Shown: positions 33,001 to 39,000, counted from the first letter of the stretch. The stretch is 64,000 nucleotides of DNA from Candidatus Eiseniibacteriota bacterium (GCA_963717935.1 CAVQXP010000004.1:1728001-1792000); one strand, 5' to 3'. Made by a program: the numbers.

Positions 33001-36000
33001 TCCCGCCGGGGCGGGCGCCCCTGGACGGACAGGGGCTGAACCCGCTGCTCCAGGACCCGTGGATGACCATCCATCCGCCGGTGCTGTTCATCGGCATCGC
33101 GTCGCTCGCCGTGCCCTTCGCCATCGCCATGGCCGCGATGGTGAAGCGCGACTGGGACGGCTGGGTGAAGCTGGCCCTGCCGTGGGTGGTGTTCTCGACG
33201 GCGGTGCTGGCCACGGGCTTCATCATGGGCGGGGTGTGGGCGTACCGCGTGCTGGGTTGGGGCGGTTACTGGGGCTGGGACCCGGTCGAGAACGGCTCGC
33301 TCATCCCCTGGCTCGCGAACCTGGCGCTGCTGCACGGGCTGCTGGTGCAGCGCGTGACCGGCAGCCTGCGCCGGACGAACCTGTTCCTCGCCGTGACCGC
33401 CTTCGTCCTGGTCCTCTACGCCTCGTTCCTGACCCGCAGCGGCGTGCTGGCCGATTTCTCCGTGCACTCCTTCGCCAACCTCGGGCTCACCAGCTTCCTG
33501 CTCACCTTCCTGTTCGTGATCATCATCGCAGGCTACGGGTTGCTCGCCTTCCGCCTGCGCGGGATCCCGAGATCGCTGCAGCAGGTCGGCGGCTTCTCCC
33601 GCGAGTCCATGATGTGGCTCGGGCAGCTGGTGTTGCTGCTCATGTGCCTGCTGATCGCGGTCGGGATGAGCGCTCCGCTCCTCACCGGCCTGTTCGGGCC
33701 GCCCGCGAACGTGCAGACCTCGTACTACAACCTGGTGAACGCCCCGCTCGCGATCATCATGGGCCTGCTGCTGGGGCTCGGTCCGCTCATGCGCTGGCGC
33801 CGCCAGGATTCGCGGGCGCTCCTGCGCGCGGCGCTGCCGGCGCTGGTGCTGGCGGTGGCGTTCACCCTGGTCATCGTGGTGCGCGGGGTGCGGGAGGCCA
33901 TGCCCGCGGGCGTCATCTTCGCCGCGGCCTTCGCGCTGGCGGCCAACGCCGTGGTCGCGGTGCGCGGCTTCCGCGTCGGCTGGCGGCACGGGGCCGCGGC
34001 CCTCGGGCACCTGGGGGTGGCGATGCTGCTGATCGGCGTCGTGGCCTCGAGCGGCTACGGCGTCGCCGCGCAGGCGCAGCTGCCGCAGGGCGAGGAGCGC
34101 CAGGCGCTGGGCTACTCGCTCACGTACCAGGGGTTCGTGAAGGAACCCGACGGCAAGGGCCACGTCCGGATCGCCGTGAGCTCGCGGGAGGGCCGCTTCG
34201 AGGCCACGCCGGCGCTCTACTGGAGTGAGTTCAACCAGGGTTACATGAAGAAGCCGCACGTCGAGCGCTACCTGACGCACGACGTCTACATCTCGCCGCT
34301 CGAGATGGTGGACGAAGAGGACGCCGAGGGGGGCGCTGCCGGCGACGCCGTGTGGCTGGCGCCCGGCGAGACCCGGGAGGTGGGTTCGGCGAGCTACACC
34401 TTCGAGGGCTTCGACCCGCAGATGGGGCAGGTCGTGCGCCTCGCTGCGCGGCTGCGGGTCGAGCTGAACGGCCGCACGGTGCCTGCGCGGCCCGTGCTGG
34501 AGATCAACACCGCGACCGGCTCGCGCAACAGCATCCCGGCCTATCTGCCGGGCGGCTCCGCGGTCGAGATCGCGGACGCCGAGCCGGGCAGCGGGCGAGT
34601 GGCCCTGGTGCTGCCCGGGGCGGCGCAGCCCGGCAGGAGCAGCGTGCTGGCGGTGGAGGTGAGCACGAAACCGTTCATCAACCTCGTCTGGCTGGGCGCG
34701 CTCCTGATGCTCGGGAGCACGTTCCTGATCACGTTCCGCCGCGCGCGGGAGTTCGGGGATGTCAGTTCGGCAGGGGGGGCGAAGACGGCGTAGGCGGGCG
34801 GGGTGGATGGTGCAGGCGAAGGGTGGGGGCCCGGGCTCGATGCAGAGCCCGGGCCCTTTTCTTCCTTGGCAACTGCACGGATGTGCAGTATCTTCAGCCC
34901 GGTGTCCAGACCCGCGAGGTTCGAATCGCTCAGCGACCCCGTGGACGTGCTCACGGTGTTCGTGGCCGGCAAGGTGAAGCCCCTGCGCTTCCGTTGGCAG
35001 GGCCGGGTCATCCGCGTGCGCAAGGTGAGTGGAGAGTGGACCCGCCGCGAAGGCCAGGCCCTGCTGCGTTATTACGCGGTGGAGGGTGCTGCGGCCGGGA
35101 CCTACGAGCTCTGCTTCGACGCCCGGGGCCCGGGTTGGATCCTCTCGCGGGCCTGGCCCGCAGGGGCATGAAAAAGGAGGGAGGGCTGCCGCGGCTCCGT
35201 GGCGGCCCCGGATGGCCATGTGGATCCTGCTCGCGGACATGGACGCCTTCTTCGCCTCGGTCGAGCAACTCGACCGTCCCCACCTGAGGGGCCGGCCCGT
35301 CGTCGTCTGCGGCGACCCGGGACGGCGTGGCGTGGTGACCGCGGCCTCGTACGAGGCGCGGCCCTCGGGTGTGCGGGCCGGGATGAGCCTGGCCGAGGCG
35401 CGCCGTCTCTGCCCGGGGGCCGAGTACGTCGAGGGCCATCCGGAGCGCTACGTCGCGCTCTCGCTCCAACTGCTCGACCTGTATCTCTCGTTCACGCCGG
35501 ACGTGGAGCCCTTCAGCGTGGACGAGGCGTTCCTCGGCCTCGATCCGAAGGAGGCGACGCTCGATCAGGCCGAGGCCGTGGCGCGGCGCGTGCAGCATGC
35601 GGTGGACGAGCGTTTCCGGCTCGGGGTCTCGGTCGGCGTGGGCCCGAACAAGCTGGTGGCCAAGATGGCGGCGGGGCTCGGAAAGCCGCGCGGCCTCACG
35701 GCTCTGGACGAGGAAGGCTTCCGCCGGGCCTTCTGGCCGCTCGAAGTGCAGGAGTTGTGGGGCGTGGGACCGAAGCTCGCCGGGCGCATGCGGTCGCTCG
35801 GGATCATGACCGTCGGCGATCTCGCCCGCGCCCCCGTCCCGTCCCTCAAGGCTGCCTTCGGTGTGGTGGGCCCGTCGCTGCGCGAGGCCGCCTGGGGAAG
35901 GGACGACACGCCGCTGGTGCCCTACCATCAAGGCGCGGACCCGAAGTCCATGGGGCACGAGGTCACCCTGTCGGCGGACTCGGCCGATCCCGCCTTCCTC

Positions 36001-39000
36001 GAGGGGACGCTGCTCCGGCTCGCGGACCAGGTGGCCCGACGGCTCCGCGGCGGGGGTTTCGTCGGCCGGACCGTGACCCTGAGGCTGCGCGACGAGCGCT
36101 TCGTGACGGTGACCCGGCAGCGCGCGCTGGAAGGCTACACCGACGACCATCGGCTCATCTTCGAGACCGCGCGCGCCCTGTGGCGTGCCCACTGGCAGGG
36201 CGGGCCTCTGAGGCTGTTGGGCGTGAGCGTCTCGGCGCTCGAGCGGGGGAGGGAGCACCCGCAGGCCGAGCTGTTCGAGGAGGACCGGCGGGAGGATCGC
36301 CTGACGAAGACGCTCGACCGCCTGCGCGACCGCATGGGCGAGGCCGCGCTCGTCCCCGCCGGCTCGCTCACGCATCGGCGCGCCCTCGGCCACGTGCCCT
36401 TCGGTGCGCGTCCCGGCCGCGGCAGGGAGGAGGCGGGATGAGCACCGGCGATCTGTTCGCGGGCTTCCCCGAGAAGGAAGCGCCCCGTCCCGCAGACCCC
36501 GGCCGGCGCATCCTCATCGGGACCTCGGGCTATTCCTTCGCGGACTGGGTGGGGCCCTTCTACCCGCCGGGCACGCGGCCGGGCGACTTCCTGCCATTCT
36601 ACGCGCGGCACTTCGACACGGTCGAGGTCAACTCCACGTACTACCGCGTCCCGTCTCCCGGGGCGATCGAGCGGATGGAGCGGAAGACCCCGCCCGGCTT
36701 CCGCTTCATGGTCAAGGTGAACCAGGCCATGACCCACGAGCGCTCGCTGGAGGCGGGCCTGGTGCGCGATTTCCGCGCCGCGCTCGGGCCGCTCAAGGCC
36801 GCAGGCAAGTACGAAGGCCTGCTGGCGCAGTTTCCCTGGGGCTTCCGCCGCACCACGGAGAACGAGTCCCACCTCGCCGCCCTGCGGGAGTCGCTCGCGG
36901 ACGAGCCGCTGTTCGTCGAGTTCCGCCACGCCTCGTGGGCCGCGCCGGACCTCGCCGGCTGGCTGCGGGATCGGCGCCTCGGCTTCTGTGCGGTGGACGA
37001 GCCGCGGCTCGAGAGCCTGATGCCCCCGGTGGCCATGGTGACCGGGGACGACGCCTACGTGCGCTTCCATGGCCGCAACGCGAAGAACTGGTGGGGAAGC
37101 CGGCCCTCCGCCGCGGTGGGCGCCGTTCCCCGGGGGACGGGAGTGGTGACCGGGGACCGTTACGACTACGAGTACAGGGCGGACGAGCTGAAGGAGTGGG
37201 CTCAGAAGGTGCGCGAACTCGCCGGGCAGGCGCGTCGGACCTATCTCTTCTTCAACAACTGCCACGCGGGGCAGGCGGCGCGCAGCGCGAAGCTCATGCA
37301 GGAGCTGCTGAGGCAGCAGGATCCGCCGGCTCGATCAGGCAGCACCTCCTGACGAGGCCCCCGATCGAAACGGCCATCCCCGCGAGCGGGGATGGCCGTT
37401 TCGATCAGGCTCTTGCCGGAGCTAGCGGTAGATCGACTTGAGCGTGCCCCAGGTCGAGGGGTGGGCCGGCGTGGCGCAGTCGGCGTTGATCTTCACGATG
37501 ATGTCGTTGACGTGACCCCAGGTGCCGAACTGGTGGAGGTCATCCGCCGGCGAGCAGTCGGGGGCGAGGAACGCCGGATACGAGGCCGGCTTGGTGAGGT
37601 AGGGCGTCTCGCCGGTCCCGAAGCCGTTCGCCATGGCGAGGTCCAGGGTGCAACCGATCTCGAACACGCCGGTCGTCGTGCCCGTGAAGCTGGACGCGAT
37701 GGGGATGAAGTCGATGAGCTGCACCTGGCTGACGATGGAGGTGACGTTGAGCGTGCCCGAGCCCGAGCCCCAGGCCACCGCCGGATCCGAGTAGAGCTCG
37801 AACGTCCCGCCCAGGAAGGTCTGGTGATAGGTGATGAGGCCGGTCCCGGTGACCGAGTCGTAGAGCGAATAGTCGGGCGGCACCGATGTCATCTCGACAC
37901 CGCACTTGATCTCCCACTGCGTGCCCAGCACGTATTCGTCCCAGGACTGCCCATGGAAGACCTTCGGGTTCCCGGAGTTGGGGAGCGGGCGCGACGTGGA
38001 CGCGCGTCCGATCTGCACGCCGGGGATCATCCCGGGGCGCGACGTGGACGTGTAGATGCCCGGCACCGGATCTGCGAACGCGGCGAGTGACGCCAGCAGG
38101 AAGAGGACGACGAGCGAGATGGAGGAGCAGCAGCGCATAGGGTGGCCTCGCGGAAAGAGTCGGTCCAGGGCCGAGGGGCCCGCAAGTCGTTCCGGATGCG
38201 GCCGACGACTGCGGTGACTCTAGCACAGCGGGAAGTGACCTGAGCAGTGGAATACGCTCGGAGCGCGGCTCCGTCGGTACGGAGGGAGCGCCAACCCTAT
38301 GCAATGTGACGTGGTGTCTCGCGGAGGAGACGCCGGAACCTGCCGCGTGGCAGATGGGGGCTGGCGAATCCCGGGTCTGCCGGGCGCGCTGGCTAGCTGT
38401 CCACCTCCCCGCGCTGCTCCCTGGCGAGCGCCGGGTGCCGTCCCTGGATGAACTCCTCACACTCGCGCACATCGCGGATGCTGCCGAGGAAGAGCGGCGT
38501 GCGCTCGTGCAGCGAGGCGGGCGCGATGTCCATGATGCGGCGCATGCCGTCGCTGGCTGCGCCCCCCGCCTGCTCCGCGACGAAGGCGAGCGGGGCCGCC
38601 TCGTAGAGCACGCGCAGCTTGCCCTTCGGGCTCTTCCGGCTCGCGGGGTAGAGGAAGATGCCGCCGTAGAGCAGGTTCCGGTGGAAGTCCGCGACCAGCG
38701 AACCGATGTAGCGCCCGCTGTATGGATGTCGGTTCGCGGCATCATCGGCCTTGAGCCAGTCCACGTAGCGCCGCACCTCATCGGACCAGAAGGCGTAGTT
38801 GCCCTCGTTGGTGCTGTAGATGTGGCCGCGCGCCGGCGTGCGGATGTCCGGCTCGGAGAGCAGGAACTCGCCGATGCTGGGCTCGTAGGTGAAACCATGC
38901 ACGCCGTTGCCCGTCGTGTAGACCAGCATCGTGCTCGAGCCGTACATCACGTAGCCCGCGGCCAGTTGCCGCTGCCCGGGCTGCAGGCAGTCCTGCAACG

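Follow-up and report, generated by a model that had tools for sequence, protein, structure and literature searches.

A stand-alone ImuB-C-like protein, probably under LexA control, encoded with DinB and a DUF72 protein in an uncultured Eisenbacteria bacterium

The locus analyzed here raises the question of what is encoded by a short open reading frame that lies between a LexA-type palindrome and dinB in an uncultured Eisenbacteria bacterium, and whether it represents a protein family of its own. Positions are counted along the window, the whole 64,000-nucleotide stretch of DNA that was analyzed. The locus is a probable SOS operon in which the small gene (34902–35171) is followed by dinB (35212–36441) and a DUF72 gene (36438–37352), all on the plus strand, and it adds another instance to an arrangement already known; the idea of a new protein family is rejected, the small protein being a further case of a kind already described. 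Upstream on the same strand is a CcmF-like gene (32574–34793; Cytochrom_C_asm and CcmF_C domains), which ends in a terminator-like hairpin with a T-run (34825–34858; 14-pair stem, 11 G-C pairs, T-rich tail) that delimits the operon on its 5′ side. Between the operon and a convergent gene (37422–38138) lies a hairpin with a perfect 20-bp stem (37363–37406; −53.7 kcal/mol, z −6.9), with which a sub-threshold Rfam P37 match coincides and which is likely a two-way terminator. The initial annotation had found the small frame directly upstream of dinB in 12 of 12 genomes, and conservation proves even stronger: the order holds at all 30 loci from 30 genomes and at 67 of 79 genome-contig loci, two sets that overlap, and in both comparisons the palindrome is followed by the small gene and dinB as a conserved pair.

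The palindrome TGCACGGATGTGCA (arms TGCAC and GTGCA, spacer GGAT), a putative LexA operator, is located at 34874–34887 (contig position 1762874) and fills the 17-nt spacer between a −35 hexamer, TTGGCA (34866–34871), and a −10 hexamer, TATCTT (34889–34894), that begins one base past it. In 64 unique Eisenbacteria promoters the spacer of the box varies and its arms do not, with the consensus cTTG.c.aC directly 5′ of the box and an almost invariant G-TAg..T behind it. The same layout of −35, box, and −10 is found at lexA, as had been asserted, and at the gene for an 84-aa paralogue (g00966, C4:311905-312159); boxes with up to two mismatches and N-TANNNT directly behind them occur at three sites in 3.0 Mb, namely lexA, the small gene, and the paralogue only. 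Because a box lies within 250 nt 5′ of lexA in 29 of 30 related loci (24 perfect and five with one mismatch), TGCAC-N4-GTGCA is very probably a LexA operator, in agreement with the control first proposed for this gene. The box also precedes the small gene at 58 of 79 genome-contig loci, and the LexA of this genome carries AAG, GDSM, and TVK.

Perfect boxes number five in the whole genome versus 2.6 expected, which is unremarkable by itself; one of them (C4:633671) lies within an esterase-like ORF, leaving the four intergenic boxes counted originally, and in non-coding DNA, set at a deliberately generous fraction of 30%, 0.79 boxes are expected and P for four or more is 0.009. Sites with zero or one mismatch are indeed absent within 500 nt upstream of recA and of either uvrA-like locus, where the best sites have two mismatches at recA, which with two such sites may yet belong to the regulon, and three to four mismatches at uvrA. 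A recA and a uvrA without a box would be unusual for an SOS regulon, and this, together with a total of perfect boxes that alone is not significant, could mean that some regulator other than LexA uses the palindrome, or that the palindrome is a mere promoter-spacer element, and that the genes are not under SOS control. Such an interpretation is very improbable, however, given that the box stands before the lexA gene, both at 29 of 30 loci and in Ignavibacteria, and that the other genes placed under it form translesion polymerase modules. The LexA regulon seems limited to lexA (with its Y1 transposase-like gene), two ImuB-C modules, and perhaps mraZ.

The small gene was annotated as starting 7 nt after the box, but its ATG at 34881 is the eighth base of the box and hence lies within it. 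Homologues and promoter geometry favor GTG 34902, which is probably the true start and gives a protein of 89 rather than 96 aa; a GTG start 7–8 nt past a −10 hexamer is unusual. No Shine-Dalgarno sequence was seen before the small gene. Because of this, and of a start codon that is uncertain (the ATG falling in the operator, the GTG at what is predicted to be the 5′ end of the mRNA), the frame could conceivably be untranslated and the region a 5′ leader of dinB, but the probability of this is close to nil in view of dN/dS values of 0.06–0.13, protein-level conservation down to 26–37% identity across phyla, the Pfam match and confident fold described below, and the clean ATG start (MFESL...) of most relatives.

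In its 89-aa form the protein matches Pfam DUF6504 (PF20114) at 24.4 bits (E 3.5e-5), a thin margin over the cut-off of 24.2, whereas the 96-aa form (24.0 bits, E 4.7e-5) falls just below it, as reported at first; a gene formerly left without family assignment is thus placed in DUF6504. Half of 30 diverse relatives (15) match DUF6504 at E ≤ 0.001 as their sole family match, many close homologues carry a precomputed PF20114, with NCBI naming one 'DUF6504 family protein', and 852 clusters of a representative library match at E ≤ 0.001. Besides DUF6504, Pfam yields only a weak DUF4873 match at E ≤ 1, and there is no NCBIfam match. The AF2 model has eight beta-strands (pLDDT 85.4, pTM 0.75). Foldseek against the PDB found no matching solved fold (best E 0.33), and the best Z in a wide VIA-align search, 5.7, is within the tool's stated noise range; resemblance to the WRKY and Pur-alpha nucleic-acid binders is weak, with Z of 4.7–5.0 only. 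The protein is strongly basic. In the wide set of 30 diverse sequences W79 (89-aa numbering) alone is invariant, and basic residues are conserved only as a majority; in closer sequences R29 and W32, which belong to the RFRW-GR stretch, never vary, and R31 and R75 hardly do.

Stand-alone ImuB-C proteins were described in 2013, 2019, and 2026 as small, all-beta proteins that partner Y-family polymerases, frequently with lexA nearby (PMC3765255, PMC6511836, PMC12926913). The account in PMC3765255 characterizes them as beta-rich, with a conserved C-terminal Trp, basic residues, and no known fold, and places their genes most often beside dinB, frequently beside lexA, and also beside radical-SAM genes. 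The DUF6504 protein is likewise mainly beta, lacks a unifying fold, has the C-terminal Trp, and occurs in the same neighborhoods, adjoining lexA at 6 of 79 loci and in genomes G038–G040 and radical_SAM genes at two loci (L100 and L113). What had been read as a new family of SOS-induced small proteins therefore fits a published one. The sequence link to ImuB itself appears weak: hhalign against ImuB C-termini gives E values of 4.7e-4 (probability 33%), 9e-3 (4.5%), and 2.5e-3 (12%), compared with 0.57 and 0.61 for reversed and mid-protein controls. The best and only local alignment always falls at ImuB residues about 441–502 in the same register, under which the last four strands of the AF2 models of the small protein and ImuB coincide. 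In hmmsearch against 26 ImuBs from one Gemmatimonadota-like lineage only, the best stretch is C-terminal in 25, and P0289 has its second stretch there, with scores of at most 10 bits and lower scores for reversed controls; none of the ImuB proteins carries a precomputed PF20114. Because this link is weak, equating DUF6504 with ImuB-C rests partly on the literature description and shared context. Taken jointly with the explanation of the whole operon given below, the small protein is likely to be the C-terminal domain of ImuB in free-standing form, a basic beta-barrel of small size that has no catalytic residues.

With 263.8 bits, the product of dinB exceeds the 256-bit cut-off of the NCBIfam Pol IV equivalog PRK02406; it is below the cut-offs of the other NCBIfam Pol IV models and matches Pfam IMS, IMS_C, and IMS_HHH. 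Its DMDAFF and SVDEAF catalytic motifs and its C-terminal motifs are conserved among 26 sequences, and judged by these it is an active Y-family polymerase of the Pol IV type. Further features are a clamp-type motif, Q-A-E-L-F, a conserved HVPFGA tail, and a stretch, LDRLRDRMGEAALVPAG, that by eye resembles the RecA N-terminus LQQIEKQFGKGAIMKLG; Pfam DUF4113 has no match in DinB at E ≤ 1. Since the genome, which is 93% complete, contains one IMS (Y-family) gene, dinB, and one Pol III alpha gene, it offers no other polymerase partner for the small protein.

The 84-aa paralogue was initially regarded as a free-standing version. The shared promoter layout stands, but the gene is solitary only in this genome: of 20 relatives, 17 have behind it a second Y-family polymerase that is missing here, and in most relatives the genome contains two paralogous modules. 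The paralogue is the orphan small subunit of a second module that has lost its polymerase, rather than a protein designed to act alone. Small proteins and neighboring polymerases each form two clean clades with support of 1.0, type A, which includes the small gene under study, and type B, which includes the orphan; lexA-DUF6504-polY runs as in Geobacter occur in G038–G040 and at locus L103. The orphan keeps its box and reading frame with a dN/dS of 0.16–0.21, and this purifying selection suggests a role that does not need the cognate polymerase.

The DUF72 gene encodes a predicted TIM-barrel protein, UVDE/endonuclease-IV-like (Pfam PF01904, 212.9 bits; for DUF72 see PMC11791011 and PMC3828134), and its ATG overlaps the dinB stop codon (ATGA). 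DUF72 follows dinB at 49 of 79 loci and is seen only behind type-A modules, and its product is probably a nuclease-like, lesion-processing partner. The earlier reading had missed this third gene of the operon.

The retention of the orphan type-B copy after loss of PolY-B is also what would be expected if the small protein acted independently in the SOS response, for example by sensing or binding damaged or single-stranded DNA or as a regulator, and were merely co-expressed with DinB rather than a subunit of the polymerase. Pairs of lexA and DUF6504 without a polymerase at two loci (L093 and L112) point the same way, as do 12 of 79 loci without a dinB match (one of which, L078, breaks off too soon to judge), the basic character of the protein, and its faint WRKY/Pur-alpha resemblance; a role in recognizing DNA damage was already suggested by Aravind et al. 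(PMC3765255). We nevertheless regard this reading as rather unlikely, because A small proteins go strictly with A polymerases and B with B, adjacency is near-universal in the phylum, and the homologous ImuB domain has been modelled as a protein-binding module (PMC12926913); both roles are moreover compatible. With slightly less doubt, although still tentatively, the ImuB-C-like protein may have a job independent of its own polymerase, such as detecting DNA damage and bringing in any repair enzyme that is available. This would explain why the orphan is kept with an intact box under purifying selection, why Ignavibacteria have lexA-DUF6504 without a polymerase, and why the type-A operon joins translesion synthesis to a UVDE-like enzyme; if true, the small protein, DinB, and DUF72 would constitute a three-part lesion-processing unit that is as yet undescribed.

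The explanation that we prefer for the locus, and consider likely, is a LexA-repressed three-gene operon. A LexA dimer would bind TGCAC-N4-GTGCA, occupy the spacer between −35 and −10, and block RNA polymerase until DNA damage led to RecA-stimulated self-cleavage of LexA, for which the needed Ala-Gly site and Ser and Lys residues are present, and freed the promoter. Translated from GTG 34902 at or near the mRNA 5′ end, the small protein would be made first and, following the published prediction for its family, would serve as the non-catalytic small subunit of a translesion complex of the DinB-RecA type, binding its cognate Y-family polymerase and/or damaged DNA. The polymerase would contribute the clamp motif and the RecA-N-terminus-like motif, and DUF72, translationally coupled to dinB, may act as the lesion-processing partner. 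An accessory subunit of the polymerase is also what the initial annotation proposed, in line with that prediction, but the ImuB C-terminal domain is a nearer analogue than the UmuD, YolD, or ImuA then named: the small protein has no S24 or YolD match in Pfam at E ≤ 1 and none in NCBIfam, and an all-beta protein of 89 aa cannot hold a RecA-like core.

Eisenbacteria, Ignavibacteria, and Fibrobacter belong to the FCB group, and the LexA box of Fibrobacter succinogenes is reportedly TGCNC-N4-GTGCA, with the same palindrome arms and spacing as here. UmuD′2C (Pol V) and YolD/YqjX-YqjW resemble the present operon in having a small gene before a Y-family polymerase under LexA control, which is probable here, and a RecA-N-terminus-like motif, putative here, but the small protein here lacks an S24 or YolD match and a cleavage site, and the ImuB-C barrel is said to differ from the SH3-type barrel found in UmuD′ and YqjX (PMC12926913). 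With the ImuA-ImuB-DnaE2 mutasome the locus shares the likeness of its small protein to the C-terminal barrel of ImuB (residues 441–502), with strands in register; in models that domain binds DnaE2 and ImuA, whereas this genome has one catalytically intact Y-family gene and one Pol III alpha gene, at least DnaE2 being missing. Closest are the stand-alone ImuB-C modules, for which lexA-imuB-C-polY of Geobacter sulfurreducens (GSU0042-like proteins), a damage-induced operon, is the type case of PolY-[ImuB-C]-RecA (PMC3765255, PMC6511836, PMC12926913). Common to both are a beta-only protein of 80–90 aa with a C-terminal Trp, basic residues, and no known fold, a gene directly before an active PolY with a RecA-N-terminus-like motif (putative here), LexA control (probable here), often with lexA in the same run (here in relatives G038–G040 and L103), and the absence of dnaE2 and of imuA, at which no search was aimed here. 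The present case differs in its phylum, the groups named in those papers being delta-proteobacteria, Deferribacteres, Planctomycetes, Clostridia, and Actinobacteria; in an operator of the TGCAC-N4-GTGCA type and a lexA that is unlinked in this genome; and in the two paralogous modules per genome of most relatives, with DUF72 as a conserved third gene.

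The assembly (3.02 Mb in 5 contigs, ~70% G+C, 93% complete) places the operon downstream of a CcmF-like gene (32574–34793) having Cytochrom_C_asm and CcmF_C domains, which ends in a terminator-like hairpin at 34825–34858. The promoter consists of a −35 hexamer TTGGCA (34866–34871), the palindrome TGCACGGATGTGCA (34874–34887), and a −10 hexamer TATCTT (34889–34894) one base past the palindrome. The small gene reads from GTG 34902 or, in the same frame, ATG 34881 to 35171, and is followed by dinB from 35212 (or 35218) to 36441 and by a third gene at 36438–37352, which scores 212.9 bits against PF01904 (DUF72) and is translationally coupled to dinB, its start overlapping the dinB stop as ATGA. 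Between the DUF72 gene and a convergent gene stands a perfect hairpin with a 20-bp stem (37363–37406; −53.7 kcal/mol, z −6.9); the hairpin by itself probably accounts for the sub-threshold Rfam match to the Pseudomonas sRNA P37 at the same position (34.1 bits vs 50).

The initial annotation placed the start of a 96-aa reading frame 7 nt past the box; its ATG 34881 is instead the eighth base within the palindrome, ahead of the −10 hexamer. The N-terminus of most of 19 aligned homologues, MFESL..., falls at residue 13 of the 96-aa form (R before F14 and E15), where the codon in this genome is AGG, not ATG. Among the closest relatives, those likewise without this ATG have a start codon that matches GTG 34902. 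As this GTG is only 7–8 nt past the −10 hexamer, the mRNA would carry little or no leader. At about the expected transcription start, 48 of 64 unique promoters (loci L005–L091) have a GTGCC word (GTGTCC at 34901–34907 here) at a fixed 14–15 nt past the box; it keeps to no single reading frame and is therefore conserved as DNA or RNA.

The small gene is real and under purifying selection, with dN/dS values of 0.06 and 0.13 against two congeners. A match to its protein is present in 41 of 41 related genomes, and in all 30 best loci (30 genomes) a dinB homologue comes directly after the small ORF, extending an arrangement reported initially for 12 of 12. A lone box upstream, reported for 10 of those 12, recurs in all 18 loci of the window's own family, where the sole box of the locus lies just ahead of the small ORF (16 perfect, 2 with one mismatch). 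Eight loci of three other families have the order box, lexA, at times another gene, box, Y1-transposase-like gene, small gene, dinB. Among 79 named genome_contigs loci, which overlap in part with the related genomes, count the unpublished genome G026 (L027, L185) as one row, and are biased toward modules of the type found here (type A) by the use of a narrower alignment, A3, in place of the too-diverse A2, dinB lies downstream in 67, DUF72 behind dinB in 49, and a box 20–69 nt ahead of the match in 58 (31 perfect and 27 one-mismatch, the left arm of the latter being mostly TGCCC or TGCTC).

Five perfect copies of the palindrome occur genome-wide, where a third-order Markov model predicts 2.6. 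An esterase-like ORF contains one of them, and the other four, in agreement with the four intergenic boxes counted initially, precede lexA (box at C4:654760, gene at C4:654113–654700), the small gene, the paralogue of the small gene (box at C4:311865) and, by ~170 nt, mraZ. For non-coding DNA 0.79 boxes are expected and the probability of four or more is 0.009, assuming a generous 30% non-coding fraction. A genome scan for a box with up to two mismatches having N-TANNNT behind and TTG ahead returns lexA, the small gene and the paralogue only. Upstream of lexA in related genomes (n = 30, own included) a box within 250 nt is perfect in 24 loci and one-mismatch in 5, and one locus has none; two Ignavibacteria loci (L093, L112) also carry a perfect box before lexA. 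The LexA protein of this genome retains the AAG cleavage site, GDSM and TVK. The palindrome is thus very likely, as judged from sequence, a LexA operator. Fibrobacter succinogenes has the same palindrome as its LexA box. The locus yields a small, well-supported SOS regulon and a putative operator for an uncultured phylum, for which the literature matches listed contain no link between Eisenbacteria and LexA or SOS. This regulon looks minimal, with mutagenic repair at its centre instead of recA and uvr.

The box near mraZ (C2:302360) precedes the −35 of a TTGACA...TATGTT promoter by ~45 nt, outside the promoter itself, and has its own −10-like hexamer, TATCTG, in a geometry unlike that of the three core sites. 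Upstream of recA (match start C4:1242193), TGCCCAAATGTGTA lies at 154 nt with two mismatches, its TGCCC arm being common in relatives' operators, and a second two-mismatch site lies at −243; sites with up to two mismatches occur in ~18% of random 560-nt windows, so that LexA may, but need not, control recA. On account of the two sites, the reading that places recA clearly outside the regulon was dropped. One-mismatch boxes are rarer than expected genome-wide (39 vs 103, third-order Markov model). At each of two uvrA-like loci (C2:391422–394127 and C4:2050936–2053711), the match to the UvrA model is broken into several segments that lie in different open frames. A homologue of Y1 (IS200-like) transposases is encoded 75 nt past lexA (C4:653561–653899, outside the window) and, in other families, between lexA and the small gene with its own box ahead (L025:1049–1525, L029:1004–1444); it reads VHLVL at the HUH position, with one His only, and so may be inactive and domesticated.

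The paralogue (g00966, 84 aa, C4:311905–312159) is 31–32% identical to the small protein and is followed by a quinone-oxidoreductase-like gene. It had been described as a free-standing version with its own promoter box; the box stands, and one is present upstream of the orthologue in 17 of 20 relatives' loci; the free-standing character does not, since a second Y-family polymerase (PolY-B) is directly downstream in 17 of the 20. PolY-B is 32–41% identical to DinB and its IMS domains are intact. Because synteny with the congener G004 stops ~70 nt past the paralogue and tblastn with the second polymerase matched DinB alone in this genome, PolY-B has been lost here and its small partner retained. 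The paralogue retains an intact box and a dN/dS of 0.16–0.21, like lineages where the polymerase is still present. The main rival explanation, a polymerase-independent role of the small protein, gains from this orphan copy kept without PolY-B and from the existence of lexA–DUF6504 pairs lacking a polymerase, and may well be true in addition to the partnership with a polymerase that is preferred here. The small proteins, labelled as this operon's type (A) or the paralogue's (B), and the polymerases, labelled by these neighbours, both divide neatly into two groups at support 1.0 (51 and 45 tips), an agreement inflated by kinship of the genomes. In a tree that includes 149 representatives of the family, types A and B occupy separate regions, and a recent duplication was for this reason dropped as their origin. 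In genus g22 only the B module was seen. DUF72 occurs only behind type-A modules (19 type-A loci, within L005–L030, and no type-B, among 51 loci searched in DNA ending ~250 nt past dinB).

The initial annotation left the small gene without a family; in its 89-aa form, read from GTG 34902, the Pfam DUF6504 score increases to 24.4 bits and narrowly passes the cut-off of 24.2. The family is a large one, with 852 clusters (50% identity) matched at E ≤ 0.001, nearly all of 80–90 aa, and a member is found in 134 of 151 sampled genomes of the phylum. A search for longer forms returned one 201-aa protein and no polymerase fusion, and tblastn against plasmids gave no match to either small protein. In a representative library, the 1346-aa protein P0191 carries the domain as a tandem array, with eight matches to the DUF6504 profile. 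AF2 models the small protein as a single all-beta domain of eight strands (pLDDT 85, pTM 0.75). Neither Foldseek nor VIA-align identified a clear fold among solved structures, and the sole sequence hit, a repeat lectin (E 7e-4, 32 residues), is taken as chance. Across 30 diverse members one residue alone is invariant, a Trp close to the C-terminus; closer members share a conserved RFRW-GR stretch. UmuD-, YolD- and ImuA-like identities were rejected, as no such domain matched.

DinB retains the catalytic motifs and, past the little finger, has a conserved Q-x-E-L-F, then LDRLRDRMGEAALVPAGSL, which by eye only resembles the N-terminus of the same genome's RecA, and then HVPFGA. DinB is the sole Y-family gene and there is one Pol III alpha gene, which leaves DinB as the one polymerase of this assembly with which the small protein could pair. 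With no second Y-family gene to draw on here, ImuB sequences were taken from two unrelated genomes; these are named 'protein ImuB' by their source and adjoin a RecA-like gene read as ImuA from sequence alone. The small protein gives weak but specific sequence signals against them, and the last four strands of the small-protein and ImuB AF2 models coincide in the same register. On these grounds it is assigned to DUF6504 with good confidence and to the stand-alone ImuB C-terminal domains (ImuB-C) with fair confidence.

From the observed anatomy, conservation and family membership a mode of action can be proposed. LexA would occupy the promoter spacer and repress transcription, and DNA damage would relieve this repression; the small barrel would be a non-catalytic subunit that associates with DinB and probably RecA, or would guide DinB to lesions, and DUF72 may act on the lesion. 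Error-prone polymerases are the predicted partners of stand-alone ImuB-C proteins. The phylum offers a clean natural experiment, with two co-inherited ImuB-C/polymerase pairs, genomes where one polymerase is lost and its small partner retained, and DUF72, a conserved third gene suspected to encode a nuclease.

The literature searched contains no experimental test of a stand-alone ImuB-C protein, no paper in which DUF6504 was found, and no link of DUF72 to DinB/ImuB-C modules. In PMC11791011 and PMC3828134, DUF72 proteins are described as TIM barrels, compared with UV-damage endonuclease and endonuclease IV, and noted near SOS-type polB2 operons. The account of Timinskas and Venclovas (2019, PMC6511836) couples active PolYs having a RecA-N-terminus-like motif to stand-alone ImuB-C, and describes the Geobacter lexA-imuB-C-polY operon as damage-induced and one transcription unit; a 2026 survey (PMC12926913) models ImuB-C as a beta-barrel of new fold, with PolY-[ImuB-C] among putative complexes. 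GSU0042-like small proteins, as described by Aravind et al. (2013, PMC3765255), are related to the ImuB C-terminal domain, beta-rich, and marked by a conserved C-terminal Trp and basic residues; their genes are most often beside dinB, often with lexA too, and are found also with radical-SAM photolyase-like genes. In its all-beta model, its invariant Trp near the C-terminus and its adjacency to dinB, the small protein fits this published portrait of ImuB-C.
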